A program made the position numbers and the translations under genes. From Thermoplasmatota archaeon (GTDB taxonomy: Archaea; Thermoplasmatota; JAKEGO01): a stretch of 64,000 nt of DNA. Position 1 is the stretch's first letter, and every line of letters begins with the position of its first letter. The DNA is taken from positions 1-64,000 of the forward strand of contig JANQNK010000006.1 in assembly GCA_028279595.1 (NCBI GenBank), in the 5' to 3' direction. Shown here piece by piece: positions 2,368 to 49,246 of the stretch. The notes beneath the pieces were generated by a model, which did no database searches, was not told the DNA's origin, and saw nothing but the letters and a program-made list of their open reading frames with translations.

Positions 2368-3495
2368 TCACTCGAGAACGTGAATGTTCTTCTTCTCGCA
2401 GATCTCCTTGAGCTGGTTCGGCCATATCGTGACCGAGACCTCTCCGAGGTGCGCCTTCTGGAGGAGGAGCATCTGCGTCCTGGACTGCCCGATACCGCCG
2501 CCGATCGACAGCGGGATCTCGTCGTTCATGATGGCCTGATGGTAGGGCATGTCGAGGTAGTGCATCAGGTCGGATGCCTCGAGCTGCTGGACCAGGGTGT
2601 CCTTCGTCACGCGTATTCCCATCGAGGTGAGCTCGTGGCGCCTCTGGGTGACGTGGTTCCAGACGAGGATGTCGCCGTTGAGGCCGTGCATGGGCCTGCC
2701 GTCGGCGGACGTCGTCGGGGTGATCCAGTCGTCGTAGTCCGCGGCGCGCATCTCGTGCGGGTAGCCGTCGTCCAGGACCCATCCGATCCCGTAGATGAAG
2801 ACAGCGTCCTTCTCCTTGAGGATGGCCGTCTCCCTCTGCTTCCTCGGGAGGTCCGGGTACCTGGCGAGCAGGTCCTCGGCGTGTATGAAGAAGAGCTCCT
2901 CCGGAAGCCTTGGGATCCCGGTATCGTTGAGCTGCGGATACATCTCGCGGACCATCCTGTCGGCGCCCACGAAGACGCTCCATATCCTCTTGACGACGTC
3001 GGTCAGGAACTCGAGGTTCCTGTCCTCCGCGGTGATGACGCGCTCCCAGTCCCACTGGTCGACGTAGGAGCTGTGGTCGTGGTCGAGGAAGTAGTCCTTC
3101 CTGACCGCGCGCATGTCGGTGTTGATCCCCTCTCCGACCTCGCATTCGAACTGGGCAAGGGCCAAGCGCTTCCACTTCGTCGCTGCCTGGACTATCGATG
3201 CGTGGATCGGCTCTGGTATCCCGAGACCGGCATTGAACTCCACCGGAGTCCGTGAGCCGTCACGGTCGAGCATGTCGTTCACACCGCTGTCAACCTCGAC
3301 GATCAGGGGTACCTGGACAAGGAAGAGGTTCAGCTGCTCAGCGAGTCCCTTCTCGATGTACTCCTTCACGGCGTAGACCGCCTTCTGGGTCTCCTTGACG
3401 TCCAGCACCGACGAGTAGTTGTCGGGAAGGATCTTTTCGACTTCTTCGTACGTGCTGATCCCGGGACCAGCCAGATCTGCCTTCTTATCGTTCAT
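2368..3495 (-). CDS. asnA: Aspartate-ammonia ligase (asparagine synthetase A)
   Basis: KWKR, HSSYVDQWDWE, RAADYDDW, LNGDILVW, ELTSMGIRV and SIGGGIGQSR motifs; GGAGG upstream of the ATG at 3495. Confidence 0.92.
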   Translation of the reverse strand: MNDKKADLAGPGISTYEEVEKILPDNYSSVLDVKETQKAVYAVKEYIEKGLAEQLNLFLVQVPLIVEVDSGVNDMLDRDGSRTPVEFNAGLGIPEPIHASIVQAATKWKRLALAQFECEVGEGINTDMRAVRKDYFLDHDHSSYVDQWDWERVITAEDRNLEFLTDVVKRIWSVFVGADRMVREMYPQLNDTGIPRLPEELFFIHAEDLLARYPDLPRKQRETAILKEKDAVFIYGIGWVLDDGYPHEMRAADYDDWITPTTSADGRPMHGLNGDILVWNHVTQRRHELTSMGIRVTKDTLVQQLEASDLMHYLDMPYHQAIMNDEIPLSIGGGIGQSRTQMLLLQKAHLGEVSVTIWPNQLKEICEKKNIHVLE

Positions 3496-3574
3496 CTCAT
3501 CATCCTCCGTTAAACGGGTGTATCGTTGGCACACCGACCCACGAATTTGTATATAAAGGTATTCGAAAACCCCT

Positions 3575-4258
3575 CTAATCGGCCGGCCCCAGTCCCGTTG
3601 CGGTTATCGAGAACCTGGCGCTCTCCCCTTCGGGTCTCGACCTGTGCTTCATGAGGACCGCCTCCCGGACGTTGGGGGAGACCCAGTCGAGCCGAACGAT
3701 CGTCTTCGCATTGTGCCTCAGAACGTATCCGCCCACGGGTTCGAGGATGTCGGTCTCGACGTCGGTGTAGACCTGGTTCGCGATGACCACGGCGACGTTC
3801 TCCTGACGTGCGAGGCTCAGAAGACCGAGTATCTGCGAAAGGAGGTTCTTCCGGAGCGTGTCATCCGAATGATAGTCCAATCTGTAGTACACCGTCGCGG
3901 AATCGAGGATGATCAGTCCGATCTTCGCCTGGCTGCGGGCCAGCCTGACCGCCTTGTCCACGAGCTTCTTCTGCTCCGTCATCGAGAATGGATGGTAGAT
4001 GATGATGTCCTTGAGCAACGATGGGTCCTCGGCCATCTGGCCGAGCCTCTCCGCCGAGATGCCCTCAGTGTCGATGTAGATGACCCTGTGCCCCTTCGCG
4101 GCTGCGCTCAATGCCAGGCTGAGACAGATGTTCGTCTTTCCAGAGCCAGCGCCGCCGTAGAACTCCGTTAAAGTGTCGGTCTCGACCCCTCCGCCGAGCA
4201 GGTCGTCGAGCGGTCCGCACCTTGTCGATAGCCTTGGTATGGTGCTCCCTTCCGACAT
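3575..4258 (-). CDS. radB: DNA repair protein RadB
   Basis: LDDLLGGG, GGAGSGKT, IDTEG, NQVY, C-terminal KHR motif; no RadA N-terminal domain. Confidence 0.9.
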   Translation of the reverse strand: MSEGSTIPRLSTRCGPLDDLLGGGVETDTLTEFYGGAGSGKTNICLSLALSAAAKGHRVIYIDTEGISAERLGQMAEDPSLLKDIIIYHPFSMTEQKKLVDKAVRLARSQAKIGLIILDSATVYYRLDYHSDDTLRKNLLSQILGLLSLARQENVAVVIANQVYTDVETDILEPVGGYVLRHNAKTIVRLDWVSPNVREAVLMKHRSRPEGESARFSITATGLGPAD

Positions 4259-4263
4259 GTCGC

Positions 4264-6867
4264 TCAATCCCCCTTGATGGCATGGAGTTCGCGCTCAATG
4301 ACCGCGCACTCCTCGGGTTTGAGGGTCTTCGGGCTGAGCGGTACCAGGAAGATGATGTCCCGCTCGGAGATGGAGTCCTTCGTCCTACGTATCAGGTTGA
4401 CCACCGGGTCGAAGCCGTGGATGTGGACCAGGTACTCGATGCCGTCGAGCATGATGACGCACCGCTCCTTCTGGTTGATCCGCGACATCAACACCTCCAT
4501 GAGTTCCTCCAGGACGGAGGAGATGGTCCCATCCCCCTCCGACATGTCAGTGAGCCACATGACATCGGCATTCCCGAGGTCGTAGAAGTGCTTCAGCTGT
4601 CTCGGGTTCGTCCTCGAGATCAGCAGTCCCTGGGACTCGCCTATCGCCTGTGTGAAGAGCTTGTATGCCGGGTCCGGCTGGACCACCTCCAGGAGGTACG
4701 AGAATCCCCAGTCGAGTCCCCCCGGCACCACCTGGACTGATGGTTCCGGCTCGGGTTCGGACGGCTTCGGCTTCTTTGCCCTCTTCGGCTGCGGCCTCTC
4801 CATCTTCGCGGGTGTCAGGTAGTCCTTGAGGAGGTCCGTCGCCCTGGCGAGGTCGATGTCCTTCCCCTTCAGAGTGTGTTCGGCGTGGAGCTTCGAGAGC
4901 GCACCCTCCAGCTCCCTGATGCTGAGCCTGATGTTGGATGCTATGAACTCGATGACGTCTGCCTTCAACGGCAGTCCGCGCTCTGCGCTCTTCTTGATGA
5001 GAATGGCCGTTCGAAGCTCCAGCGAAGGATGCTGGATGTCGGCTATGAGGCCTCCCTCGAAGCGGGTCCTGAGCCTCTTCTCGAGGGTGGTCAGCTCCTT
5101 CGGGGGCCTGTCGGATGTTATGACGATCTGCTTACCCTCGGTGTGCATGTTGTTGAATATCTGGAAGAACATCTCCTGGGCCGACTCCTTTCCGGCCAGT
5201 ATCTGGATGTCGTCGATCAACAGGACGTCGGCGTCGTCGTACTTCCTCATCGCTCCGGAGTTCGGCATGCCCATCGATTGGACGACGTCGCTCGTGAACT
5301 CCTCGCTCGTCACGTATATCTGCCGGAGCTCCGGTTCGTTCTTCCTTATCCTGTTGTGGATGGCCCCCAGGAGGTGGGTCTTTCCCAGTCCCGAAGGGCT
5401 GTAGATGAAGAGTGGATTGTATGTCTGGCCCGGCGCCTGGGCCACGGCGAACGCGGCCGCTCTGGTGAACCTGTTGGTCTCGTCAACGACGAATGTGTCG
5501 AACGTGAAGCGCTTGAAGTGGTTGGGCACGGTCCCCTCGCGGAGCCGCGCCTTCGAGGCCTCGCCGAGGATCACGTCGGCCGGGACCTCCGAATCACCGT
5601 CCCCCATGGACCTCATCAGGCTCCGGACCCTCGGGCTCTTCTTCTTCCGAGGCCTGGGTTTTGCCTGTCTCTGCGGTGCCGGCTTCTTCGGTGCCTGCTT
5701 CTTGGCGGGCTTCTTCCTCTTCTTCGAGGGTTTGGCTGGGGGTCTCGCCTTCGGTGGAGCCTTCTTGGGAGCGGGTCGCCTAGCGGCCTGCGGCGGGGGT
5801 GTCCTCACCTTCCTCTTCGGCGCCTGTTTCCTGGCCGGCCTTCGCGTGTCCGGCCTGCTCGCTATCCCCTCGGACGCTGCCTTCAGTCCGAAGTGGTAGA
5901 CCTGTTTCTCGAGACCCGGGATGTTGACGGGATCGTAGGTCCTGTCGAGGAGGTTCTGCTTCTCCCTCTTGTAGGTCTCGGTGTCGATGTCCTCGATGAT
6001 CTTCCTGTGCTCCTTCAGCACGCTGATGTCCCTCTCGAAGAGCTTGAACTCCGTCTTGATTATCTCGATGTTCTCGGTCCGGATCGCGGTCTCGAGCCTG
6101 TCGACGATGTAACCCATGCTCCTCCAGTAGTGCATGAGCGCCTCGAACCTCGACATCTCGCCCCTGTTGTCGCTCTTCCGGGCCTCCTTGCGCCTCATCA
6201 TGATCTTGTTCTCTAGTCCGAGTATCTTCTTCCTGACAACGAGGGTCTTGTTGACGTGTTTCAGTATCTCCTCGATGTCGCCCTTCTCCTCGTCGAACCC
6301 TTCCGCGTCAAGCAGGTACAACCGGTCCCGAAGGTCCTTCATGATCGAGACGTTACGCTCGAAACTGTCGAACTCGGCCCTTATCTGGTCGATATCCGTG
6401 CCGCCGATGACCTCCTCGAGATCGTCGGTGTCCCATCCCTCGCGCCGCCACATGGCAATGCGCTTGTTCATCACGACCATCTCGTTCATCTTCCACAGCT
6501 CGGTGTTGACGAACGAGTCTCTGCCCTCCTTCAGCTTGCCGTCCTCCTCGTCCTCGACGATGGCGTCGAGGTCGTCCACGACATGGAGGTCGATGTTGCA
6601 CGTGTTCGCGTTGGCCTCCTCCAGGATCCTCGTGAACCCGGCATCAGAGGCGTAACGCTTGTCGAAGTTGGCGATAGCCCATGTGGGCCTCCCCTCGCGG
6701 AGGATGACATCGCCCTCGTAGTACTTGTCGAAGTTGTAGAAGTAGACCGCAACGTAGCCTTCGAACGAATCGTTCCTGCATTCCTCGAGAACCGAGAATA
6801 GGCTCTGTTCCTGCGTCGTCGTCGACTTGACGATCTTACCCACCGGGAGCCTTGTCTCCGAGGCCAT
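4264..6867 (-). CDS. Multidomain DnaA/Hda-family AAA+ protein: DUF2226/PATAN-like N-terminus, two helical repeats, K/P/A/R-rich linker, DnaA ATPase, C-terminal DUF835
   Basis: FTFDTFVV..N, YNPLFIYSPSGLGKTHLL, LLIDDIQ, ITSDRPP, RLRTRFEGGL, IRELEGAL; DUF835 signatures LLISRTNP, VMWLT, MLDGIEYL. Confidence 0.85.
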   Translation of the reverse strand: MASETRLPVGKIVKSTTTQEQSLFSVLEECRNDSFEGYVAVYFYNFDKYYEGDVILREGRPTWAIANFDKRYASDAGFTRILEEANANTCNIDLHVVDDLDAIVEDEEDGKLKEGRDSFVNTELWKMNEMVVMNKRIAMWRREGWDTDDLEEVIGGTDIDQIRAEFDSFERNVSIMKDLRDRLYLLDAEGFDEEKGDIEEILKHVNKTLVVRKKILGLENKIMMRRKEARKSDNRGEMSRFEALMHYWRSMGYIVDRLETAIRTENIEIIKTEFKLFERDISVLKEHRKIIEDIDTETYKREKQNLLDRTYDPVNIPGLEKQVYHFGLKAASEGIASRPDTRRPARKQAPKRKVRTPPPQAARRPAPKKAPPKARPPAKPSKKRKKPAKKQAPKKPAPQRQAKPRPRKKKSPRVRSLMRSMGDGDSEVPADVILGEASKARLREGTVPNHFKRFTFDTFVVDETNRFTRAAAFAVAQAPGQTYNPLFIYSPSGLGKTHLLGAIHNRIRKNEPELRQIYVTSEEFTSDVVQSMGMPNSGAMRKYDDADVLLIDDIQILAGKESAQEMFFQIFNNMHTEGKQIVITSDRPPKELTTLEKRLRTRFEGGLIADIQHPSLELRTAILIKKSAERGLPLKADVIEFIASNIRLSIRELEGALSKLHAEHTLKGKDIDLARATDLLKDYLTPAKMERPQPKRAKKPKPSEPEPEPSVQVVPGGLDWGFSYLLEVVQPDPAYKLFTQAIGESQGLLISRTNPRQLKHFYDLGNADVMWLTDMSEGDGTISSVLEELMEVLMSRINQKERCVIMLDGIEYLVHIHGFDPVVNLIRRTKDSISERDIIFLVPLSPKTLKPEECAVIERELHAIKGD

Positions 6868-6957
6868 ACCTCACCCCAATGGCGACACGTGTCATCCGGA
6901 AATCTGTGCAGCCTGCTGGTGGTAATTCCCATGTTGCTATATATATTTATACGGCAG

Positions 6958-7758
6958 TCAGGCCCGTTTTCGGAGCATTTCGAGCCACTCGTCCCTCGCT
7001 GCCATGGCGCAGCAGCCTGGCAGGGCGTCGGGACCGGGAGCCACGGCGCCGTCGAATCCCGCCTCATCGGCCGCCTCCAGGTAGCCCTTTCCACGGGGAT
7101 GCATGCATCCGAGGACGAGCCGGCCTTCGAAGTTCTCCCGCATCCAGCTCATCAGCTCGACCGGCGGTGACCTGAGTCCGGGCAAGGGACCGTCGACCAG
7201 AGCGTTGACGATCAGCGCCTTGGCGCCGAGCTGTGCAGCCATGGAGACCGCTGTGCTCTCTCCGATGATCTCCCCGCGGTGCAGTCCCATCGTCACATGG
7301 GGTACCACCTCGATGCCTGCATCCTGAGCCCGTCTACCGGTCTCCATATAGTCCAAGGGTCTCCTGTCGAGATGGTATAACTCCTGTATCGTCCGGGCGT
7401 CGCCGATCAGATCGATCGATACTATGTCCACCCCGGCTGCGGCCAGTTCCTCTGCCGAGTCCCTCGCCAGGAAACCGGAATGGACGTTGATTATCAGGTC
7501 GGTCATATCGGAGAGTTCTCCGATCGCTGGAAGGTAAGGTCCAATGTCGAGACGTCCCTCGGCGTCGAAGCCGCCGCTTATCAGCATCCCGACCCCATCG
7601 TTCTCCCAGAGGTCCATCCCGAAGGAGAGAAGATCCGCAGGGTCCTCGATGTGCTTCATGCAATCGAGAAAGGTGCCCCTGCAGTGATCGCACATCAGAG
7701 AACATTCCCTGTCGATGGTAATCGCGGGGAACCGGGCTCCCGGCATGAACCGCAGCAT
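6958..7758 (-). CDS. Radical SAM protein (biotin synthase-related, COG1856-like)
   Basis: CSLMCDHC motif plus LISGG, NVHSG, VPHV and LGCM. Confidence 0.8.
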   Translation of the reverse strand: MLRFMPGARFPAITIDRECSLMCDHCRGTFLDCMKHIEDPADLLSFGMDLWENDGVGMLISGGFDAEGRLDIGPYLPAIGELSDMTDLIINVHSGFLARDSAEELAAAGVDIVSIDLIGDARTIQELYHLDRRPLDYMETGRRAQDAGIEVVPHVTMGLHRGEIIGESTAVSMAAQLGAKALIVNALVDGPLPGLRSPPVELMSWMRENFEGRLVLGCMHPRGKGYLEAADEAGFDGAVAPGPDALPGCCAMAARDEWLEMLRKRA

Positions 7759-7763
7759 CGGTC

Positions 7764-7982
7764 CTACTCCATGGGCGTCATGGATATGACGTTGTTCCCG
7801 CGCAGGACGACGGTGCCGAGGCGCCTTCGCTGGTCCTCGGTCCGCTCCTCCGTCTCCTCGAGGACGAGGTTCATGTACTCGTCATAACCCGTGAGGGTTC
7901 CCTCGAGGGTCCTGCCGTCCTTCAGAAGCAGGGACATCTTGCGGTTCAGGGTCTTTTCAAGGACATCTACCGGAAGCGCCAT
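7764..7982 (-). CDS. Sm-like archaeal protein (Lsm)
   Basis: Sm1 motif LKDGR.LEG.L.GYD.YMNLVL and Sm2 motif LRGNNV. Confidence 0.93.
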   Translation of the reverse strand: MALPVDVLEKTLNRKMSLLLKDGRTLEGTLTGYDEYMNLVLEETEERTEDQRRRLGTVVLRGNNVISMTPME

Positions 7983-8133
7983 TGTATCGGCCCACCTATA
8001 TCCGAGTCTCCCTTAAACCTATCGGAGGCACGCGGCCCTCGGGTCCATTTTCAGACTCCCCGGATCCGTCGTCAGGACTATCTTTAAATATCGTCATCCA
8101 TCTCTCGGAGCAGTAACTGGACAGGGACGAACC

Positions 8134-9081
8134 ATGGCTCTGAGCGAACCGAAGGTAAGGCTGACGTATCCGCAGCTCTACATGATGGTATCGCTCATAA
8201 CGTACTTCCTGGCCATCTTCTCCGGGACACTAGAGGGCGAGGCAATATTCTCCGACGACAACATCGAGATCACGGAGTACACGATCCTGTGGGGCGCATT
8301 CCTCGGAGCCGCCATGCTGACGTTCTTCATGGCCTTCAGGCTGTCGTGGACGAACGCGATGTGGTTCGTCGGGGCCTACCTGCTCCAGCTCGCCGGTGTG
8401 ACGCTCTATCTCATCGCGGACGAGCCCGGGACGACGGAGTTCGCCATCTCCGCGTTCGTCGTCTTCCTGTCGTTCGCCCTCCTTTCCACACTTATCTGGA
8501 AGGTCAAGGACATCAGGGACAGCCTTCAGGACGACACCAGGATAGTCATGGAATACGTCCCTCTCGGCCTGTGGGCGATCGAGGTCGTCGTCGCCGGGAC
8601 CTTCCTTCTCGCCTCGTTGATCTCGTTCCAGTTCTGGGTCGAGGAAGGCGGATCGCTCGTCTACTTCCTGCTATACCAGATCATTTTCTACGGCATCGTG
8701 CTCCACTCCTTCGTGGTACCCGAGGAGCTCTTCTACACCCTTGAGAAGAGCGTTCCCGAGGAGATGAGGAAATCACTCCTCGAGAGGCGCACCTCACGTA
8801 CGGTCCAGAAGACCTCCGTAAAGGCGACCCCTGTGGACAACTGCCCTCTCTGCGGCCAGGACCTGAACAAGGAGAAGAGGAAGTGCGGCACCTGCGGAGA
8901 GGTGTTCGAGTTCCGATGGTGCGGCAACAGCGAGGAGTACATCATCACATGCCCGTACTGCAACCTCCAGACCCCCTACGGCAGGGAGAAGTGCATCCAC
9001 TGCGAGCGTGCCATTCAGACCTCGATAAGATGTCCATCCTGCTCCACCGAGGTGCCCCTCAGCGAGTGGCACGAGGCGTGA
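8134..9081 (+). CDS. Membrane protein (about 6 TM) with C-terminal multi zinc-ribbon region
   Basis: Hydrophobic N-terminal 200 aa; CxxC pairs CPLC, CGTC, CPYC, CIHC, CPSC. Confidence 0.75.
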   Translation: MALSEPKVRLTYPQLYMMVSLITYFLAIFSGTLEGEAIFSDDNIEITEYTILWGAFLGAAMLTFFMAFRLSWTNAMWFVGAYLLQLAGVTLYLIADEPGTTEFAISAFVVFLSFALLSTLIWKVKDIRDSLQDDTRIVMEYVPLGLWAIEVVVAGTFLLASLISFQFWVEEGGSLVYFLLYQIIFYGIVLHSFVVPEELFYTLEKSVPEEMRKSLLERRTSRTVQKTSVKATPVDNCPLCGQDLNKEKRKCGTCGEVFEFRWCGNSEEYIITCPYCNLQTPYGREKCIHCERAIQTSIRCPSCSTEVPLSEWHEA

Positions 9082-9084
9082 TCC

Positions 9085-10446
9085 TCACTCTTTTATCCCG
9101 ACGATGTAAAGCAGCGGCTCATTGCCCATCGAGGTGACGAACCCACGGACCGTTACTGTCCTGCCGTGCAAAGAAGCGAGCCTGAGGGCCGTTGTCCAAT
9201 CGAGCATCGGCAGGGTAGGCACGGTCCCGTCCCTCGTCAATCTGGGAAACGCCGCCGTGTGCCATCTCTCCCCCACCTTTACCCTGCGGGCACGAACGTC
9301 GCGTACCCTGACCTCCGCCTCGAACCATCTTCCAACCGTATCAGGAGCGACCCTGTCCACCGTCCCGGGCGAGTTCATCGGCTTCGGTCCCGTAAGTACC
9401 GATCCGTACGATGAAGCCACCCTTACGACCCCGTCGAAGTCAGATCTCTTCCGTCTTGCGCGGTAGTACTGGACCGGATGGATGATCTCCCCGCAGAGGA
9501 TGTCCGGGTCGCGGCAGATGCCGTAGGACCTCATCGTCTCGCACTTCGGCACGGAGTACTCCGTCCCCGATGTGACACCGGTTATATGGTCGACCTGGTA
9601 CCGGGCGATCTTGTCCTGGAAATCGGGCGCCGATGCAAACAGACCCATTATCGACTCCTCGTCCATCCCTATCGTGTGAAGGAACGTGGTGAGGGCGAAC
9701 CGGGCGTGGTGGGGAAGGTTAACGCCTGCGGCGGAGTCCTCCATCAGATGCACCATGCAGGGAGGTGAATCGTCCAGTACCGGGGGTCCCCCTACATCCG
9801 CGGTCCTCGTGAGCGCGGTTTCCTCCCTGAGACGTTTCACATGCTCTCCCATGAGTGTCAGCATTTCCATGTCCACCGGGATAGGAAGATCGGCCTCGAG
9901 GCGTCGGCGTACCTCTTCCATGGTCAATCTTGTCAACTCGGACCTCTCCAGAAGGACCTCGCCGTCCGCCACCGGCCGGTTCACGAGCTTCCACTCACCC
10001 CCGGGACCGCCGATCCGATCGGAGGAGAGGGCCAGGTAGTCTGCGAACCTGACCGCGTAACCTTCCGGGGTCTTGGAGTAATCGATCCCCAATTCGCCCG
10101 TGACCAGCTCGAGGACGTCCTCCTCGGCGTCGTCGAGGTCCTCCCTCATCCGGCCGGCCTCGTTCAGAGCGAAGCGCCTGATGAGCGACATGTCGTTGAC
10201 CGCGGACACAAGGATCCTCGATACGATGTACACGAGGACGGACCTGAGTGCCTCGGGCTCCTCCAGGACAGTCTCTCGTTTCCATTCCCGCTTCCCGAGG
10301 GCCTCGAGGGTCCTCAGGAAGCCGTCCTGCCTCACTTCGGCATAGTCCGGTGAACGAAGGAGCACCTCGGGTGAAGGTCCATACTGACGGACGAACGACC
10401 CTGTCTCCTTGAGGAACGGGAAGCTGGAGAGCACCGAAGGTTCCAT
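9085..10446 (-). CDS. priL: DNA primase large subunit with C-terminal extension
   Basis: WKLVNR, PPCM, NLPHHARFAL, APDF...ARYQVDHI, Y..PKCETM...GIC Fe-S domain. Confidence 0.9.
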   Translation of the reverse strand: MEPSVLSSFPFLKETGSFVRQYGPSPEVLLRSPDYAEVRQDGFLRTLEALGKREWKRETVLEEPEALRSVLVYIVSRILVSAVNDMSLIRRFALNEAGRMREDLDDAEEDVLELVTGELGIDYSKTPEGYAVRFADYLALSSDRIGGPGGEWKLVNRPVADGEVLLERSELTRLTMEEVRRRLEADLPIPVDMEMLTLMGEHVKRLREETALTRTADVGGPPVLDDSPPCMVHLMEDSAAGVNLPHHARFALTTFLHTIGMDEESIMGLFASAPDFQDKIARYQVDHITGVTSGTEYSVPKCETMRSYGICRDPDILCGEIIHPVQYYRARRKRSDFDGVVRVASSYGSVLTGPKPMNSPGTVDRVAPDTVGRWFEAEVRVRDVRARRVKVGERWHTAAFPRLTRDGTVPTLPMLDWTTALRLASLHGRTVTVRGFVTSMGNEPLLYIVGIKE

Positions 10447-10497
10447 TTGAAGCCTATTTATACGCGAATTCTATTTAATATGTTGCTGGTGAGCACG

Positions 10498-11013
10498 ATG
10501 GGAGGCACGGAGTTCGAGAGGGAGCTCAAGGGGATACTCGAGGCCCGCGACGATGTCATGGAGAAGGTCGTCCGTTCCTGTTCCGACGATGAGACCACGA
10601 ACTACGCCCTGGTATCGGATATTCCGTTCATGGTCATCAGGGCAGCGGGTTCCTTCGGCGTGGACCTGGTCGCGTATAGACACGGCGTCTTTTTGCCCAT
10701 CGAGGTCAAGTCGTCCGGCAAGAAGCGTCTGTGGCTCGGATCCGAGCGACACGTCCAGCAGGTGGACTCGTTCCACGAGGCGTGCCGTACCTCCGGGGTG
10801 ATCCCCGTCTACGCGTTCAGGCTCAAGAAGCAGCGGGGCGACGCGTGGAGGATATTCACGGCCGAGGACGTGGACCCGACAGGGATGTCCCGATTGCTGT
10901 TCAACACACTCCCGAAGGTGACGAGGACCAAGGGTGACAGGGTGGTGCTTCCGTGGGAGGAGGGCATGCCCCTCAATGAGTTCATAGCCTACGTCCATTC
11001 ACTGCTCGAGTGA
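10498..11013 (+). CDS. hjc: Holliday junction resolvase
   Basis: G..FEREL, RAAGSFGVDLVA and IEVKSS PD-(D/E)xK motifs. Confidence 0.85.
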   Translation: MGGTEFERELKGILEARDDVMEKVVRSCSDDETTNYALVSDIPFMVIRAAGSFGVDLVAYRHGVFLPIEVKSSGKKRLWLGSERHVQQVDSFHEACRTSGVIPVYAFRLKKQRGDAWRIFTAEDVDPTGMSRLLFNTLPKVTRTKGDRVVLPWEEGMPLNEFIAYVHSLLE

Positions 11014-11016
11014 CGC

Positions 11017-11916
11017 TCACCGCATGTACTTTCGTCTGAGCTCGTTCGCAGCCCTGATGTAGGCCTGCGAACCGTTCGAGCCCATATCGTAGGTCGCGAT
11101 CGGGACACCCATGCTCTGGGCCTCGGCAACGCGCCTGTCCCTTGGCACAGCCGCCCGGAGGACGGTCCTCCCGAAGTGGTCCCTGACCTCATCGGCGATC
11201 TCGATGCTCAGTGGCGTCCTCTCGTACATCGTGATGAGTATCCCCTCGACCCTCAGGTCGGGATTCAGGTTGTCGCTGACGACCTTGATTATCCCCACGA
11301 GGTCCTTTATCCCCTCGAGGGCGAAGTATTCGCACTGGAGCGGTATCAGCACCCTGTCCGCGGCGACGAGGCTGTTGACGGTCAGCAGGCCCAGCGAGGG
11401 CGGTGTGTCTATGAAGATGAAATCGTAGTAGTCCTTGATCGGCGCCAGCGCGCTCCTCAGCTGAAGCTCCCTCTCGGGATGCTCCACGAGCTCCACGTTC
11501 ACCCGGGAAAGGTCGACGTTCGCGGGTATCAGATCGAGTCCCGGGAGGTCCGATGCAAGGAGGACGTCCTCGGCGGTCCCCAGGCCCAGCAGGACGTCAA
11601 GTATCGTCCCTTCGATCTCGGAACGCTCCACGCCCAGGCCGCTGGTCGAGTGCCCCTGCGAGTCCATGTCCACCAGCAGAACGGGATGCCCCATCCTTGC
11701 CAGCGTGGTCGCCATGTTCACGGATGTCGTCGTCTTGCCGACACCCCCCTTCCGGTTGGCCACTGCGATGACGACCGGATCATCCAGGTGGCGTTCTATC
11801 GGCCTCTGTTGAAGCATAATCTTGCGTCTCTTCGGTCTGCGCACGCGGCCTGTCAGCTGGACCGATTCCTGCTTGGGCTGTTCCTGTTTGCGTCTGAGCC
11901 ATCCCATCCCGATCAC
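11017..11916 (-). CDS. parA: ParA/Soj-family ATPase
   Basis: Deviant Walker A NRKGGVGKTT, DMDSQG, IDTPPSLG, PLQCEYFALEG. Alternative start at 11907. Confidence 0.92.
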   Translation of the reverse strand: MIGMGWLRRKQEQPKQESVQLTGRVRRPKRRKIMLQQRPIERHLDDPVVIAVANRKGGVGKTTTSVNMATTLARMGHPVLLVDMDSQGHSTSGLGVERSEIEGTILDVLLGLGTAEDVLLASDLPGLDLIPANVDLSRVNVELVEHPERELQLRSALAPIKDYYDFIFIDTPPSLGLLTVNSLVAADRVLIPLQCEYFALEGIKDLVGIIKVVSDNLNPDLRVEGILITMYERTPLSIEIADEVRDHFGRTVLRAAVPRDRRVAEAQSMGVPIATYDMGSNGSQAYIRAANELRRKYMR

Positions 11917-11917
11917 A

Positions 11918-14900
11918 TCACTTCTTTGACTTCCTGAGCCGTTCGATCTCCTTCAGGATCTTCTCGGCCTTGAGGTCCACTTCGCCGCCCGCCTTCGCGG
12001 GCTCTACGGACTCCGCAGCAACGACGACAGCTGCGGCGGGTTCCTTGGCGACCTGGGTCTTGACCGGTACACCGGTGCGGGCTATCGGTTTCGCCTCGAC
12101 GATGGCGCTCCGCTCCAGCTGGGCCTCCAGCTCGTGCACCTTCGACTGCAGCTTCCCGACCTCACCCTCCTTGTCCGCCAGTCTCTTCTTCAGGGTCGCC
12201 GAGCTCCTGTCCTTCGCGAACTCCTCGACCCGCTTCTTGAGCTCGTTCATCTTCTTTGTGTTGTCGGCCACCCGCTTGTCGGCCTCCTCGGAGACCTTCT
12301 TGATCTTCTTGTCGCGCTCCTCGATCTGCTTCTTGAGGGTATCGAGCTCCTTGTCGAGCTTGTCATGGTCCTTGCCCTTCGCCTTCGAGGTCTCTATCTC
12401 CGTTTTCAGGGTGACGATCTCCTTGGCGAGCTTCGCCTCGGACTTCTCCTTGACCGCCACGGTCGCCTTCAGTTCGTCGATCTCCTTGACCCTGCTGTTG
12501 GCGACCTCTTGTACCTTCTCGATCTTCTCTTTCAGGCCCGCCATGTCCGTGGACGAGTCCTTGAGCTTCTCCTTCTCTGCATTGAGCGCTTTAATGTTCT
12601 CCTTGAGCTTTGCGATCTCCTCGGCGGCGCCCTGGTCCGTCTTGGTCGCCTCCTGGAGCTTCAATTCGTAGTCCTTGATGAGCTTGGCCTTCTCGGCCTC
12701 GAAATTCTCGCTGGCAGATGCTCCATCCGCCATCTTCTTCTTGAGCTCGGTCAACTCGACCTCGTGCGCCTCCTTCATCTTCGAGATCGCGGCGCTCTTG
12801 GCCTCGTCGGTGGAGTCCATCTCCTTCTTCAGGTTCTCGAACTCCATCTTCAGGACGTCGGCCTCCTCGCGCTTCCTCTTGAGCTCCTTCTCGAGGTCAG
12901 CTGCTCTGTCGCCCGCCTTGTCGGCGGACTTGACGGCTCCCTCGAGCTCCGATATCGTGGCCTGCAGCTCCTTGATCCTCTCGTCGGACGATCCGACCTC
13001 CTTGACCCTCTCGTTAAGGTCTGCCTCGAGCTTACCGATCCTTTCCTGGTAGCCCTTGACCTCGGTCTCGAACTTGGCCTCACCCTCGCTCCTTGCGGAT
13101 ATCTGGGCCTCGAGCATGGAGACCCGCTCCTCGTAGGCCGTCACCTTCTTCTTCAGTTCGGCCTCCGACCTCGTCCTGGCGTTGAGCTCCTCGAGCATCT
13201 TCTCGGCCTTCTCCTCGGCGGCCTTCACGCCCTCGTCCGACTCCATCGACGCCTCGCGAACGGTGGATATCTCGTTCTCCAGCGCCTTGAGCCGCTCGGC
13301 CAGCGCCTCGGCCTTCGATCTCAGCGACTCCTCTTCCTTTGTCTTCTGGTTGAGCTTCTCCGTGAGTTCCGTGACGCGGCCCTCGGAGGCCTTGATCCTG
13401 TCGTCCGACTCCATCGTGGCGCCCCGCACCGCCTGGAGCTCCTTCTCCAATCCCTTGACGCGCTCCTCGCTCGCGGCGCTCCTGGTCTTGACGGCCTCCA
13501 GGGCGTTGGTCTTCTTGTTGAGCTCCTCGGACAGCTCCGTCTCCCTTGCCTGGAGCTCCTTGATCCTCTCTGCGTGCTCTCCGGCGCCCTCGGCCTTCGC
13601 CTCGAGGTCCTTCTCCAGTACCTTGATCCTCTCCGAGAAGGCTTCGACCTCCTTCTTAAGCTCGGCCTCGGTACCGGATTTGGCGTTCAGCTTCTCGGTG
13701 AGCTCCACTGTCCTTCGTTCTGCAGCCTTGATGTTCTCCTCGGATTCCATGGCAGCGTCGCGTACAGCTTCGAGCTCCTTCTCGAGGGCCTGTACCCGAG
13801 CCTCGGAGGCGCCGCTCTTGCGCTCGAGCTCCTTCTCACCTTCACGCTTCTTGTCGAGGGCCGTCTGGAGCCTCTCGACCCGCGCTTCGGCCTCCTGGGC
13901 CCGCTTCTCGATCTCCTCGGTCCCCTGGCCGATGTTCTGCATCTCGTTGGAAAGCTGTTTGACCCTGGCGTTCGCCGATTTCAGGTCCTCACGGAGCTTC
14001 GCCTCGGTCTTGGTACCCTCGTCGGTGAGCATCGACTGCTTCTCGAGCTCCTTCTCGAGGTTCTTGATCTTCCCGCCACGCTCGCGCAGGGCCTCCATGG
14101 CCGAGACGACCTCGCCCTCGAGCTCCTGTATCCTCTCCTTGGCAGCTCCCTCGGAGCCCTCGAGGGTCGATATCCTCTTCTCGAGCTCGACGGACGACTT
14201 CCTGAACTCCTCCGCCCTGTCCTCTGCCTTCTTGACCCTGGCGTCGGCGTCCTCGGAGCCCTTCGATTTCTGTGCGAGCTCCTCCTCGAGCTGTGCTATT
14301 CGCTCGTCCGACTTCTTGGACTTGAAAAGAAGGTCGTGCTGCAGCTTCTTCTGTCCGTTTATCTCGGTCTGAAGCTGTGCGACCTTGCCTTCGTGTGATT
14401 TGATGGAGCTCTCGAGCTCGATCCTGCCGTCCTGCTCGGACTTCACCTCGATCTCCAGCTCCTTGATCCTCTTCTCCCGGGACGCCACCTTCCCGGCGGC
14501 GGACGACTCTATCTCCTCGATCTTCCCGAGCTCCTCCTCGAGACCGGCTATGCGATCCTCGAGGGAGGTCGCCTTCCTCGATGCGTCGGTCGCCAATTTC
14601 TTCTGGTCCTCGAGCTTCCTCTCCAGGTCCGCCGCCCTCTTCTCGGCGGCCGCGACCGTTCCGCTGGACTCGGTGACGAGCTTCTCCCGCTTGTCGATCT
14701 CGTTCTGCAGTCCACTGACGGCCTTCTCGAGGTCTGCAACCTTCGCCGCGGCCTCTGCGGCGCTCTTCTCGGCCTTAACTACCTTTTCGTCAGCGGTCTT
14801 CGCAGCACCGTCGCGCTCCTCCTCGAGCGCCTTGACGGCGGTCTCGTGCTCCTGAGCCTTGTCCTCGAGCTGCGCTATCCTTTCCAGGTATGATCTTGAT

Positions 14901-17437
14901 TTCGCTTCGAGCTCCTTAGTGGTCGAGATCCGGGCCTCGAGCTCGGCCTCCAGCTTGGAAGCCTCCCCCCTGACCTTCTTGATCTCCTTCTCGAGCTTCG
15001 TATCCGCCTCGCCACGGGTGCTGAGCTCCTGCTCGACCTCCTTGACCCTCATCTCGGACTCCTTGACCGCCTTCTTCATCTCCGCGATCTTCTCGTCCCT
15101 CGATGCGATCTTCTTCTCCAGGGAGGCGATGTTCTTCGCATCCGTCCCGGCCTTGCCCTCGGCCTCGATGGCCGCGGCCCGGGTCCTCTCCACGTTCTTC
15201 TCTAGGTCCGCTATCTGCTTGTCCAGCTCGGCCGCCCTCTCGGCCTCTGCGGTACGTTCCTCGACGAGGTGTTCGAGCTCCGCTATCCGCTTCGAGTCGG
15301 TCTCTGCCCTGCCCTCCGCGTCGATGGCTGCACCGCGCGTCCTCTCGATGTCCTTCTCGAGGTCCGTCACACGGTCGACGGCGGACTCCGCCTCGCTGGT
15401 CGCTGTCTGCAGAAGGCCCTCGAGCTCAGCGATCCGCTCCCTGAGCTCCGTCCTCTTTTTGTCGTTGCGGGTCTTCGTCCTCTCGGCGTTCTTCTCGAGC
15501 TCTGCGATGCGCTCCTCGTACTCGGAGAGCTTGCCCGCTCCTGCGGACTTCTCCCGTTCAATTCCCTTCTCGAGCCTGGCGATGGTCTTCTCGTACTCCG
15601 AGCTCCGGCCGATCGCCTCGTCGCACTCGGTCCTCATTCCCTTGAGCTCTGTCTCCATCTCGGAGACCCTGGTCTCCAGGTCGACGTTCTTCTCGATGGC
15701 CTCGTCCTTCGCTGCGGACTCCTTCTCGAGCCTGCTCTCCTGCTTCCGGAGGGTCTTTTCGAGGTCGGCGATGCGGGTCTCGGTCTCGGCTCCCGCTGTG
15801 CTCGTGCTCTCCAGTTCGCCCTCCAGCTCGGCGACACGACCCTCCAGAGTGCGGACGTTGCCTCGGGCCTCCGACCGCTCCGAACGGGCCTTCTCGAGTG
15901 ACGTCTCGAGCTTCGTGATGGTCTTCTCCTGCTCCGCGACCGTGCTCTCGGCGACGGAACTGTCCTTGTTGAGGGACTTGAGGTCCTTTTCGAGGCCTGC
16001 CACGGTCTCCTCGAGGGTCTTCGCCTGCTTGGTGGCCTCGCTCCTCTCGGATCGCGCCTTCTCGAGGGAGCGCTCCAGCTTGACGATCCTCTTCTCGTAC
16101 TCGGTCGCCATCTCGACGGCCTCCTCGCTCCCCTTTTCGCTGGAAGCGACGGTGGCCTCGAGGTCGACGATACGCTTGTCGTACTCGTCCCTCTGCTTCT
16201 CGTGGGTCTTGACCTCCTTCTTGAGGTCCTTGACCTCTCCCTTCAGTTCCTCTATCGTGACTGCGTACTTCTCGGCCTTGGACTCGAGCCCCTCGGCCGC
16301 CTTCGCCCTCGCGTCAAGCTCGGCCTCGAGCTCCTTGGCCCTTTCCTGGACCTCCTCGAGCTCCTCGCCCTCGCGGGACCCGGCCTCCTCGACCTTGCTG
16401 AGGTCCTTCTCGAGCTGCTTGATCCTCTCCTCGTAGGTGGAGGCCTTCTCCTCGTGCTTCTTGACCCTGGAGGCCCACTCGTCCTCCAGGCTTGCGATCT
16501 TGTCCTCGTAGTCCGCCTTCTTCTCGGCGTCCTCATCGGCAGCGGAGGCACTCCTCTCGACCTCCTTTTCAAGCTCCGCGATCCTGTCCTTGTACTCCTT
16601 CTCGAGCTTCTCCAGTGCGGACTCATGCTCCTTCCTCATGGCCGCGGCGTCGACCTCACCGCCCTTCTCGAGCTCATCCTCCAGGGTCTCGATCCTCGCC
16701 TCGTAGGAGCGCTTCGCCTCGAGCAGTCCGGCCTCGATCCCTTTCCGGGACTCCAGGTCCTTCTCCAGCTCGGCGACCCTGTCCTCGAGCTCGTCTCCGC
16801 TGTCAGCTCGCGATTCGAGTTCCTTCTCGAGCCTCTTGATCTCGGACTTGAGCTCCTCCTTCTCATCCTCGAACCCGCTCTTCAGGTCCTCGATCTCCTC
16901 GGGGGAGACGCCCGGCTCCTTCATCTCGGCCTTGAGCTCATTGAATTCGTTGGTTCTCGTCTCCAGCTCGCGGAGGATGCCCTGCCGCTCGAGCTCCTTG
17001 ACCCCGAGTATGCGTTCCAATTCGCGCATCCTGTCGTAGAGGTCCTCCCATCCCTCGAGATTGGATTGGAGCTTCTCCACCTCCTTCTCGGCGGACTTCT
17101 TCTCCTCCCTGAGCCCTTCCATCTCCTGCTCGATCTCCTTCTCCTTCTCGGACTGGACCTCGTTGAGCTTGTCGAGCTCCTTCTTCAGGTCCTTGATCTC
17201 ATCCTCGCTCTCCTCGAGCTTCTCGGTGGACTTCGAGAGCTTCTTCTCCAGGTCCTTGATGGACTTGTCCTTGGTGGATGAATCGGACCTCGCGGCCTCG
17301 AGCTCGGCCTGCAGGTCCTCGATGGTCTCCTCCTTGGAACCGAGGTCGGTCTCCAGTGTAGAGATCTCGTCCTCGATGTGCGAAAGGAAGTCCTTGATCG
17401 TCGGTGCCTTCTTCCCGGAGTTCTCGTCGCCTGACAT
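11918..17437 (-). CDS. Giant (1839 aa) coiled-coil protein
   Basis: E/K/A/L-rich heptads along the whole length; no Walker A/B or SMC hinge seen; start overlaps the upstream stop (TAATG at 17435-17439). Confidence 0.85.
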   Translation of the reverse strand: MSGDENSGKKAPTIKDFLSHIEDEISTLETDLGSKEETIEDLQAELEAARSDSSTKDKSIKDLEKKLSKSTEKLEESEDEIKDLKKELDKLNEVQSEKEKEIEQEMEGLREEKKSAEKEVEKLQSNLEGWEDLYDRMRELERILGVKELERQGILRELETRTNEFNELKAEMKEPGVSPEEIEDLKSGFEDEKEELKSEIKRLEKELESRADSGDELEDRVAELEKDLESRKGIEAGLLEAKRSYEARIETLEDELEKGGEVDAAAMRKEHESALEKLEKEYKDRIAELEKEVERSASAADEDAEKKADYEDKIASLEDEWASRVKKHEEKASTYEERIKQLEKDLSKVEEAGSREGEELEEVQERAKELEAELDARAKAAEGLESKAEKYAVTIEELKGEVKDLKKEVKTHEKQRDEYDKRIVDLEATVASSEKGSEEAVEMATEYEKRIVKLERSLEKARSERSEATKQAKTLEETVAGLEKDLKSLNKDSSVAESTVAEQEKTITKLETSLEKARSERSEARGNVRTLEGRVAELEGELESTSTAGAETETRIADLEKTLRKQESRLEKESAAKDEAIEKNVDLETRVSEMETELKGMRTECDEAIGRSSEYEKTIARLEKGIEREKSAGAGKLSEYEERIAELEKNAERTKTRNDKKRTELRERIAELEGLLQTATSEAESAVDRVTDLEKDIERTRGAAIDAEGRAETDSKRIAELEHLVEERTAEAERAAELDKQIADLEKNVERTRAAAIEAEGKAGTDAKNIASLEKKIASRDEKIAEMKKAVKESEMRVKEVEQELSTRGEADTKLEKEIKKVRGEASKLEAELEARISTTKELEAKSRSYLERIAQLEDKAQEHETAVKALEEERDGAAKTADEKVVKAEKSAAEAAAKVADLEKAVSGLQNEIDKREKLVTESSGTVAAAEKRAADLERKLEDQKKLATDASRKATSLEDRIAGLEEELGKIEEIESSAAGKVASREKRIKELEIEVKSEQDGRIELESSIKSHEGKVAQLQTEINGQKKLQHDLLFKSKKSDERIAQLEEELAQKSKGSEDADARVKKAEDRAEEFRKSSVELEKRISTLEGSEGAAKERIQELEGEVVSAMEALRERGGKIKNLEKELEKQSMLTDEGTKTEAKLREDLKSANARVKQLSNEMQNIGQGTEEIEKRAQEAEARVERLQTALDKKREGEKELERKSGASEARVQALEKELEAVRDAAMESEENIKAAERRTVELTEKLNAKSGTEAELKKEVEAFSERIKVLEKDLEAKAEGAGEHAERIKELQARETELSEELNKKTNALEAVKTRSAASEERVKGLEKELQAVRGATMESDDRIKASEGRVTELTEKLNQKTKEEESLRSKAEALAERLKALENEISTVREASMESDEGVKAAEEKAEKMLEELNARTRSEAELKKKVTAYEERVSMLEAQISARSEGEAKFETEVKGYQERIGKLEADLNERVKEVGSSDERIKELQATISELEGAVKSADKAGDRAADLEKELKRKREEADVLKMEFENLKKEMDSTDEAKSAAISKMKEAHEVELTELKKKMADGASASENFEAEKAKLIKDYELKLQEATKTDQGAAEEIAKLKENIKALNAEKEKLKDSSTDMAGLKEKIEKVQEVANSRVKEIDELKATVAVKEKSEAKLAKEIVTLKTEIETSKAKGKDHDKLDKELDTLKKQIEERDKKIKKVSEEADKRVADNTKKMNELKKRVEEFAKDRSSATLKKRLADKEGEVGKLQSKVHELEAQLERSAIVEAKPIARTGVPVKTQVAKEPAAAVVVAAESVEPAKAGGEVDLKAEKILKEIERLRKSKK

Positions 17438-19035
17438 TAGGATCCCTCCTCCATCATCTTCTGAAGTACACGTTCCCTGGCCACCAGGTCCACCTTCTTC
17501 TCCTCGAGCCGGATCCTGATCCGCTTAGCCTCATCTATCAGGGCCGCGACCTGTGATAGAAATATCTGCTGGCGCTCCTTGAACGCCTTGATCTTGAACT
17601 TGAGGTCCGCCTCCCTCTCCTCGAGGTTCTGCATCTCCGATTCCTTGAGGGCCACATCGACCGACCGACGGCGGATGTCCGCCTCGCGCTTGTCGAGCTC
17701 CGTGGCGAACCGTGAGAGCTCCTCGGACCGTAACTGGAGGTTCATCTCCTTCTCGCCGAGCCTTCCCTCCTTGTAGTCGATGTCGGGGCCTACCTGTTCG
17801 AACGTCGGCATCGGTCCCGGAACGGGCGAAGGCATCGGTACATCGGTCGTGATGCCCTTCTCCCGAGTTCGGAGGTTGTCCTCCCAGATCGCGAGGGTCT
17901 CCTCACGCCTGTCGAGGGCGTCCTCGAGCCTGGCGATCTCGAGCTGCTTCCTGGAGACCTCCTCCACCTCGACCTCCCGGACCATCATCTCGACCTCCTT
18001 CCGGATGAGCTCCTCCCTCGCCATCTGTTCCTCCTTCTTGAGGTCCTGCTCCATCTGCCGCAGCCCCTCCTCGCGGGCCTGCAGCAGCTCCTCGCGGCGC
18101 TCTATCTCCTCGACGAGAGCATTCCTCGTCGTGAGCTTTCCCGCGACCTGCGTCTGCATCGTGTTGATCTCGGCGATCTTCGCTTTGAGCTCCACCTCGC
18201 GGATGTCTATCTCGTCACGCTTCCGCTTGAACTCTTCGTACTTCGCCTCGTCGATTATGATCTCGACCTCCTTCTTCAGGAGGTCCTCCTTTATCGCATC
18301 GAGCTCCTGCTCCTTCTTCCGCATCGCTGCGTCCCTCTCCTCGAACGCGGCACGCATCTTGTCGAGCTCGTCCCTTCCGGCAACGAGCTTCTCCTCGATA
18401 TCCCTCTCGCGCTCCTCGAGGGCGTGCTCCCGGGCGGCAAGTTCCGCCGTTCCTGCTGCATCGCCGACGGGTGCCGATTCGATATCACGCCGGAGGTCCT
18501 CGATCTCTGCCTCCTTTCGTGCGAGGTCCCTCTCCCTCTCGGCGAGGTACTTCGTCTTCTTGTCGATGTCCGAGGTCGTGGTCCGTGTGACGTTGTCGGA
18601 TATCTTGTCCATGTTGTTCTTAATTTCGACGACGAGGTCCTCGAACATCGCGACGAGTTCGCTCTTCGTCTTCTCCCGACCGTCCTTGCGGAGGCGCTTC
18701 TCCGTCTTCTTGAGCTCCTCCTTCTTCCGCTCGATCGCCTCCATCATCTCGGAGATCTTGGTCGGCGGGACCTCCTTCACAGAGACGACGCGGATGTTCG
18801 TTTTGCCCTTGAGCTTGAGGTTGGGCGATATCGTATCGAGAAGCGACTCACCGACGCCGGGAACATTGAGCAGTTGCTTCTTCCGTGTGATCGGACCGTT
18901 GTCCTTGACGTACTTCACTATGGCTATCGCCTTCTTCTCGCCGAGGCCCGGAAGTACGAGGAAATCCTCTACCTTCGCCTCGTTGATGTTGATCGATCCT
19001 ATGACCTCTATCGGCGTAGCTCCCTTGTCTTCCAT
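17437..19035 (-). CDS. ComEA-like helix-hairpin-helix domain plus coiled-coil protein
   Basis: ININEA..EDFLVLPGLGEKKAIAIV...NGP...QLLNVPGVG, then about 450 aa of coiled coil; no signal or TM segment. Confidence 0.85.
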   Translation of the reverse strand: MEDKGATPIEVIGSININEAKVEDFLVLPGLGEKKAIAIVKYVKDNGPITRKKQLLNVPGVGESLLDTISPNLKLKGKTNIRVVSVKEVPPTKISEMMEAIERKKEELKKTEKRLRKDGREKTKSELVAMFEDLVVEIKNNMDKISDNVTRTTTSDIDKKTKYLAERERDLARKEAEIEDLRRDIESAPVGDAAGTAELAAREHALEERERDIEEKLVAGRDELDKMRAAFEERDAAMRKKEQELDAIKEDLLKKEVEIIIDEAKYEEFKRKRDEIDIREVELKAKIAEINTMQTQVAGKLTTRNALVEEIERREELLQAREEGLRQMEQDLKKEEQMAREELIRKEVEMMVREVEVEEVSRKQLEIARLEDALDRREETLAIWEDNLRTREKGITTDVPMPSPVPGPMPTFEQVGPDIDYKEGRLGEKEMNLQLRSEELSRFATELDKREADIRRRSVDVALKESEMQNLEEREADLKFKIKAFKERQQIFLSQVAALIDEAKRIRIRLEEKKVDLVARERVLQKMMEEGS

Positions 19036-47592: not shown

Positions 47593-47773
47593 CATCACCC
47601 GATGGTGTATTAACGGAAAATCGCCTGAAACTATCGAAAACCTACTCTAAACGCATAATATTTTAATGGTGAATATTGATAAAATAACGGTTATTTTGAC
47701 ATATAACCGCAAAAAATATATATACACACCTAACCTTACTGAGATTCGGAAAAGTCCGATGGAGGATTGGCAA

Positions 47774-48547: not shown

Positions 48548-49246
48548 TCAATAACCGTACAGTGGGCCGAGGACCATCAGGCCGTCGTCACCGACGTCCA
48601 GGACGAACTTCTCCATGTCGTGCTTCACGGCACGCATCTTCTTGATCTGGAGGTACCTCCTGACGTTCTGGGTCGTCTCGACCACTCCCAGCTCGATCAC
48701 GCCGTCCACGAGGAACAGCATGGTCTCCGCTCCCGCATAGGACTCCGTGAGGCCGATCCTCTCCATGATTATGGTCGTTGTGAGGTCGTTCTCCCTGAGG
48801 GTGTTGAAGAAGTGGTACATCTCACGTCTCGGGTCGTCGATGTCCACAAGGGAGTAGAGGGCTCCCAGGGAGTCGATGACCACGTACTTGAACCTCTCCT
48901 CGTTCTGCCTCTTGAAGGAGATGATGATGGAGAGGATCATCCTGAGGAAGGCGAGGTGCTTCTCCTCTCCCCTGAACTTCCTCCTCAGGCTGTTGTAATC
49001 GACGATCTTGAGGCGCTCCTCGACACCGATCCCGAGGGAGTTGAGGTTGTGATTGAGGCTCTGACCCCCCTCCTCGAGCGTAATGTAGATGCCCAGGGTG
49101 TCGTCCCTCTGGCATTGAGCGGCGATGAGCGAGTAGGCGAAGCTGGACTTCAGGGTGCCGCCCTCACCCACTATGGCGAGGGCTATGGTATGGTCGATAT
49201 CCGTCTTGAATATCTTGTCGAGCCCCTTAACGGAATCCCGGAACAC
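48548..49246 (-). CDS. KaiC/RAD55-like single-domain ATPase
   Basis: GEGGTLKS, YITLEE, VIDSL, FLVDGVIEL, KKMR..H. Confidence 0.85.
   Translation of the reverse strand: MFRDSVKGLDKIFKTDIDHTIALAIVGEGGTLKSSFAYSLIAAQCQRDDTLGIYITLEEGGQSLNHNLNSLGIGVEERLKIVDYNSLRRKFRGEEKHLAFLRMILSIIISFKRQNEERFKYVVIDSLGALYSLVDIDDPRREMYHFFNTLRENDLTTTIIMERIGLTESYAGAETMLFLVDGVIELGVVETTQNVRRYLQIKKMRAVKHDMEKFVLDVGDDGLMVLGPLYGY

Follow-up and report, generated by a model that had tools for sequence, protein, structure and literature searches.

The window considered here is a stretch of 64,000 nucleotides from a Thermoplasmatota archaeon (assembly GCA_028279595.1, contig JANQNK010000006.1). On its minus strand, at 4264-6867, lies a gene whose 867-residue product contains domain III of DnaA, the AAA+ ATPase of a protein regarded as a bacteria-only, single-purpose initiator. 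On balance we lean toward reading this DnaA-core protein as a non-initiator member of the DnaA clade, an ATP-gated oligomeric switch that clusters its attached modules in a signalling or polarity network linked to KaiC and DUF835. The uninterrupted open reading frame (ORF) has no internal stops, and the predicted model of its product consists of four folded blocks with disordered linkers between them. Its parts are as follows.

4264..6867, minus strand: whole gene, 867 residues, with PATAN-like domain, two repeats, basic linker, DnaA domain III and DUF835
6532..6855, minus strand: PATAN/DUF2226-like domain, residues 5-112 (predicted-model match and profile matches)
6184..6489, minus strand: W..G helical repeat 1, residues 127-228
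5869..6165, minus strand: W..G helical repeat 2, residues 235-333
5530..5859, minus strand: disordered basic K/R/P/A linker, residues 337-446 (composition; predicted local distance difference test, pLDDT)
4810..5520, minus strand: DnaA domain III AAA+ ATPase, residues 450-686 (PF00308, E 5e-59; B. subtilis DnaA, E 2e-69; Foldseek match to 8bv3)
5377..5400, minus strand: Walker A SPSGLGKT, residues 490-497
5203..5223, minus strand: Walker B LLIDDIQ, residues 549-555
4723..4809, minus strand: Pro/Lys/Glu linker at the expected start of domain IV, residues 687-715 (pLDDT <50; no domain IV match)
4267..4722, minus strand: DUF835, an inactivated KaiC-like domain without Walker A, residues 716-867 (PF05763)

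The DnaA ATPase core

The ATPase domain is that of DnaA in sequence, motifs and predicted fold. A Pfam search of the ORF protein places Bac_DnaA at residues 452-609 (E 5e-59), alignment with B. subtilis DnaA extends across 236 residues (E 2e-69), and the model superposes on 8BV3 with a root-mean-square deviation (rmsd) of 1.7 Å at 52% identity (Foldseek). Every motif quoted for this domain in the initial annotation is in place: Walker A (S490-T497), Walker B (D552/D553), sensor I (D586), the Arg finger (R602) and sensor II (R651). When the gene's clade is compared with 86 canonical DnaAs, K496, T497, D552, D553, D586, R598, R602 and R651 prove invariant (100%) within the gene's own clade. The AAA domain is also the protein's best-conserved region (72% identity, vs 45% for the N domain and 30% for the linker).

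The surface that reads the DnaA-trio has fared differently. Capture of the trio depends on N187, I190, I193, R202, E228 and K222 (PMC10721633). Three of these sites are replaced in the archaeal protein (N187 by S526, E228 by M566, I193 by M532), and the equivalent of R202 is R541 or M540 depending on the alignment around a one-residue deletion. F218, T225 and H231 are likewise replaced, and the initiator-specific motif is one residue short; box VII is kept. Selection has preserved ATP handling and the oligomer interface rather than sequence-specific unwinding. The initial annotation had proposed a repurposed DnaA acting as an ATP switch or single-stranded DNA (ssDNA) filament; a non-initiator ATPase whose ATP and oligomer residues are intact is supported by the analysis, and a sequence-specific filament is weakened because the trio pocket has decayed.

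The domains that flank domain III in an initiator are missing. The 867-residue protein has no Pfam match to the domain IV helix-turn-helix (Bac_DnaA_C, PF08299), and DUF835, preceded by the Pro/Lys-rich linker, fills the C-terminus, just as first described. Nor does it match a custom hidden Markov model (HMM) of domain I; its N-terminus resembles DUF2226/PATAN instead. The DnaA equivalog model TIGR00362 gives 305.5 bits, under its cut-off of 343.9, and the Hda model TIGR03420 gives 101.8 bits, under its cut-off of 194.8. The Orc1/Cdc6 model TIGR02928 picks genes at C11:162429 and C5:34936 of the same genome, not the DnaA-core gene.

Flanking domains

Pfam gives no direct match for the N domain. 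Its model nevertheless resembles DUF2226 with a template-modelling (TM) score of 0.82 and PatA_N clusters with 0.68-0.70, predicted structures being compared with predicted structures, and its profile retrieves DUF4388 (10/84) and DUF2226 (3/84) proteins, which bears out the DUF2226/PATAN-like assignment made at first sight. A fold search across the PDB returned nothing over Z 5.2. The two W..G repeats, also named at the outset, are about 97 residues each and resemble one another (33% identity across 70 residues, E 6e-11).

The linker at residues 337-446 contains 38 K+R, 21 P and 15 A and has a pLDDT <50. It had been called histone-H1-like. The K/P/A/R composition is indeed there, but Pfam finds no H1 globular winged-helix domain and the region is disordered; the likeness to H1 is one of composition only. 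It is the least conserved region of the protein, with a net charge of +11 to +17 in close relatives, and is absent from most family members. DUF835 is matched at residues 732-861 (PF05763, E 3e-21, 76 bits vs a gathering cut-off of 33.1); strands and helices alternate in its model, and there is no GxxxxGKT.

Authenticity of the gene and its host genome

The gene is real and conserved, and it is not a chimera, because four independent assemblies hold the full-length protein (54-84% identity). The source is a metagenome bin, which is what might suggest an assembly chimera or a decaying pseudogene. The same architecture recurs in many assemblies, the gene order LSM, radical SAM, DnaA-core gene, radB is conserved at 54% identity, the third-codon-position GC content is uniform across the domains, the frame is free of stops and the ATPase is its most conserved part; an artefact of either kind has next to no chance. 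A single contig from the run that is the probable source (a coral metagenome) spans 3072-12000 with zero mismatches and is not independent.

The host genome (2.29 Mb, 86% complete) is assigned to Thermoplasmatota by its homologues with taxon names. It carries two orc1/cdc6 genes above cut-off and one DnaA-like gene. It has 20 perfect DnaA boxes, scattered and without a cluster, and the scan for origin recognition box (ORB) motifs gives scattered matches. Searches of this incomplete genome (86%) turned up neither ParB nor gyrase B. The immediate neighbours of the DnaA-core gene are lipS1 and radB, not dnaN. An archaellum-like cluster lies at C4:135340-141296 (arlJ, arlI, arlH and neighbours, identified from motifs and PF00437), and the genome has a second pilus ATPase besides it.

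A wider family in archaea and Gemmatimonadota

The protein had been viewed as a lone gene. It belongs to a wide family that has a bacterial branch. The DnaA-core domain occurs in 44 of 401 Thermoplasmatota genomes, with a maximum of eight copies per genome, and was not found in the other 357. Among 125 non-canonical family proteins, a set enriched for the N domain by an N-domain profile search, domain IV is found in none (custom HMM; control 11/11) and domain I in none (custom HMM, run without a positive control). The W..G repeat is present in 81 of them, the PATAN-like domain in 71 and a DUF835 fusion in 57; DUF835 is the next gene in four further loci.

Other members join the DnaA core to TPR, HEAT, zinc ribbons or an E2-like domain. 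A receptor-like form (L057:3855-7354, L063:4998-6587) has a signal peptide, an Fn3 ectodomain, a single membrane helix and the DnaA core, and the L057 gene stands in an operon with KaiC and a seven-transmembrane DUF835 protein downstream. At L041:5956-10455 a type II/IV secretion (pilus) ATPase forms one protein with the core, and two T2SSF genes come next. An initiator would have no use for such membrane, pilus-ATPase, TPR, HEAT, zinc-ribbon and E2-like fusions. Among the loci L053:738-3902 and L050:1491-2948, a ubiquitin-conjugating-enzyme-like domain is combined with a DnaA core and DUF835, and a RING/PHD-like protein adjoins another copy.

Of 61 Gemmatimonadota genomes, 34 give three domain matches, which fits a canonical DnaA plus a tandem pair. 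The tandem protein sits in a che/PatA_N-TPR/Roadblock/MglA operon. A repeat HMM built from archaea only matches ahead of its second ATPase (best E 9e-18) and matches no canonical DnaA. A single clade of domain-IV-less copies, archaeal and Gemmatimonadota together, has a p-value of 0.595 in the approximately unbiased (AU) test, the constrained tree being 2.2 log-likelihood units better; the free trees leave the point unresolved. The trees were built without an Hda outgroup, and the bacterial reference set came from a scan dominated by canonical DnaA. In quick and FastTree trees the clade of the gene fell, weakly supported, within bacterial DnaAs, as a second transfer would have it; this was not accepted, because the bacterial set was chosen by query similarity, the clade sits on a long branch and a single origin is not rejected by the AU test.

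Copies of the Methanomassiliicoccales type (L094, L188, L148) lie 2-3 kb from gyrB-gyrA, with a gyrA intein in L094 and L188. This adjacency was not used as a relic of oriC, since it is one inherited block.

The KaiC/DUF835 context

The tie to KaiC and DUF835 is contextual. A KaiC-like gene is present in 6 of 60 family loci, from four families, and the single-domain KaiC-like ATPase of the window, at 48548-49246 as the initial annotation had it, shares 38-41% identity with two of these. Three further homologues of the window KaiC, selected for the length of their contigs, all adjoin DUF835 genes, one of them 2.4 kb from a DnaA-DUF835 fusion. The genome also holds a multi-PAS-DUF835 protein among response regulators (C19:225001-232000) and a stand-alone DUF835. 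A complex prediction for DUF835 with the window ATPase (score 0.08, mark 0.32) is evidence neither way. The KaiC link first proposed has contextual support; control of the DnaA-core protein by KaiC we infer from gene context.

At L211 and L213, homologues of the window KaiC occur with DUF835 and PadR genes beside gas-vesicle clusters. In the window, an archaeal type IV pilin gene (47666-48367) converges on the KaiC-like gene.

Neighbouring genes and the radB junction

Other features of the window that bear on the gene are listed below.

3575..4258, minus strand: radB (TIGR02237, 238 bits vs a cut-off of 172)
6868..6877, minus strand: Shine-Dalgarno-like GGGGTGAGGT immediately 5' of the ATG (read by eye)
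6938..6951, minus strand: TATA-like AT run, candidate promoter, within the 90-nt gap upstream of the gene (read by eye)
11017..11916, minus strand: Soj/ParA-type ATPase, 4 kb upstream of the DnaA-core gene
48548..49246, minus strand: single-domain KaiC-like ATPase, candidate partner in the network as judged by the context of its subfamily (PF06745, E 3e-32)

A sigma-70 promoter scan was empty, the sigma-70 model being ill-suited to an archaeal host. The ATG of radB (4258) follows the stop of the DnaA-core gene by 5 nt, so the reported abutment is real, and the two genes are probably co-transcribed. As a meaningful neighbour radB fares less well: the adjacency is limited to the genome's own taxonomic order and close homologues, in two families of that order. 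It is absent from the Methanomassiliicoccales loci, where other neighbours are found, and no radB occurs in 58 of the 60 family loci examined. Directly downstream of radB, at 2368-3534, lies asnA (bacterial-type aspartate-ammonia ligase), in the same place as in L096. Upstream of the DnaA-core gene, 4 kb away, a string on the minus strand (11017-19035) comprises a helix-hairpin-helix coiled-coil protein, a coiled coil of 1839 residues and the ParA.

A repeat shared with Soj/ParA systems

The genome's four copies of the W..G repeat are confined to two proteins, the DnaA-core protein and a ParA fusion (C1:77684-80314) made of a Soj-type ParA, a (PE)n linker and two W..G repeats. The gene before this fusion is PATAN-like (hhalign E 6e-5, probability 65%). 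In other families (L202, L203, L204, L206, L207, L209, L210), the gene after ParA encodes a ParB-like LG[KR]G[ML] peptide followed by two W..G repeats, with TPR added in L203; these post-ParA proteins have no ParB core domain. The DnaA core is present in all 27 genomes that have a close ParA (at least 48% identity). These genomes represent seven families, however, and 19 come from one; with this ParA query, 17 DnaA-core genomes have no close ParA, and in seven genomes strong repeats occur without the DnaA core. The ParAs retain two arginines at what we take to be the DNA-binding positions of Soj. In B. subtilis, Soj acts directly on DnaA (PMC9564211), and V323, a DnaA position implicated in control by Soj, is H661 in the DnaA-core protein.

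Proposed mechanism and alternative explanations

From the known biochemistry of DnaA, ATP binding would drive head-to-tail oligomerisation and hydrolysis would reverse it. The context suggests that oligomerisation gathers the attached modules: KaiC-like ATPases and two-component outputs would lie on the DUF835 side, and a surface or polarity machine, for which the archaellum and the type IV pilus motor are candidates, on the side of the PATAN-like domain; the W..G repeats would form a scaffold common to other proteins of the network. A possible output is the archaellum or a pilus, since in cyanobacteria PATAN binds the pilus motor (PilB1/PilC; PMC11181946) and ATPases of both kinds are encoded in the genome. 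Several observations weigh against this switch. Its entire support comes from gene context and homology. The DnaA-core gene is set amid genes of DNA metabolism (priL, hjc, parA and radB), with no signalling neighbour; no neighbour is universal across the family loci; and the window's KaiC candidate lies 42 kb away. No Roadblock protein was found in the 86% complete genome. Two trio residues of B. subtilis, K222 and I190, still have counterparts in K560 and V529, and the linker is strongly basic, with a net charge of +27 in its best 60 residues.

Some of these points would suit a protein that works on DNA. In that case the basic linker would replace domain IV as a non-specific DNA tether, and the AAA+ filament would stretch ssDNA together with RadB in repair or chromosome upkeep. 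The 5-nt radB gap, conserved in two families of the order, the proximity of priL, hjc and parA, the retained K560 and V529, the charge of the linker and the Methanomassiliicoccales copies 2 kb from gyrB all speak for it. The eroded trio pocket, the poor conservation and weaker charge of the linker in relatives and its loss from most of the family, the 58 loci without radB and the membrane-anchored and pilus-fused relatives speak the other way, and we regard such a filament as unlikely. A role as replication initiator, or as an Hda-like regulator beside Orc1/Cdc6, could draw on the 52% identity with DnaA domain III, the intact ATPase and the nearby primase and ParA genes. It is highly improbable given that domains I and IV are missing, that both equivalog scores fall short, that the genome has two orc1/cdc6 genes and scattered DnaA boxes, and that the domain was not found in 357 of 401 relatives.

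The shared repeat raises another alternative, in which the DnaA-core protein serves a Soj/ParA system without ParB as its cargo or adaptor: through the W..G repeat it would come together with a nucleoid-binding ParA and that ParA's repeat partner, and the three would position a protein cluster. It is favoured by the confinement of the four repeat copies to this protein and to the ParA fusion behind a PATAN-like gene, by the peptide-plus-repeat genes after ParA elsewhere, by the 27 of 27 co-occurrence, by the two arginines and by the precedent of Soj control in B. subtilis. The narrow family sampling, the genomes that have one partner without the other and the change at the V323 position make it quite unlikely. 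A broader synthesis, likewise doubtful, is that Thermoplasmatota reuse the DnaA core, Soj/ParA and a ParB shrunk to its ParA-activating peptide, all without sequence-specific DNA domains, and that the shared repeat joins the three into a positioning or polarity apparatus guided by the nucleoid and controlled by KaiC/DUF835, to which Gemmatimonadota would have a sister system.

Comparison with known systems

Bacterial DnaA (8BTG/8BV3, 2Z4R, 2HCB/3R8F) shares domain III with the archaeal protein, at 52% identity and an rmsd of 1.6-1.7 Å over about 230 residues, as well as Walker A and B, sensors I and II, the Arg finger and box VII. The archaeal protein differs in having no domain I or IV, an eroded trio pocket, PATAN-like, repeat and DUF835 flanks and an Orc1/Cdc6 host. 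Hda/HdaA is alike in being a DnaA-clade AAA+ protein without a DNA-box domain that is used as a regulator. The DnaA-core protein, however, is only 21-23% identical to Hda structures, vs 52% to DnaA, scores below the Hda cut-off and is multidomain, and its genome has no initiator DnaA to regulate.

The tandem DnaA-like ATPase of Gemmatimonadota offers a parallel in its domain III without domain IV, the same W..G repeat ahead of it and a PATAN context. It differs in its two AAA domains, in the absence of DUF835, in carrying PATAN on adjacent genes and in a host that retains canonical DnaA. The archaeal KaiC/inactivated KaiC (iKaiC) network is comparable in its C-terminal DUF835, and the genome has further DUF835 proteins; the input module here is an AAA+ ATPase rather than REC or PAS. 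DUF835 is described there as a response-regulator output, and DnaA goes unmentioned (PMC5847659). Cyanobacterial PatA-type regulators (PATAN-REC: PixE, PixG) share the N-terminal PATAN-like fold, as judged from predicted structures, whereas the archaeal protein has no REC domain.

No description of the archaeal family was found in the literature covered, outside which lies Makarova et al. 2017 (mBio, KaiC hubs), a paper that might list the architecture; for the Gemmatimonadota tandem ATPase no characterisation was found in that literature. The repeat common to both groups, the decay of the trio pocket, the restriction of the radB adjacency to one order and the repeat's tie to a ParB-less ParA were examined directly in this analysis, and the last of these is new here.

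Implications

If the proposed switch is correct, a widespread and expanded non-initiator family in archaea and Gemmatimonadota would mean that the ATP filament switch of the initiator has been put to new use as a portable module for signalling. Since Methanomassiliicoccales carry the DnaA core, there may be a tractable host. For DUF835 and the KaiC network of archaea, the protein would be a concrete ATPase partner, testable with soluble domains.

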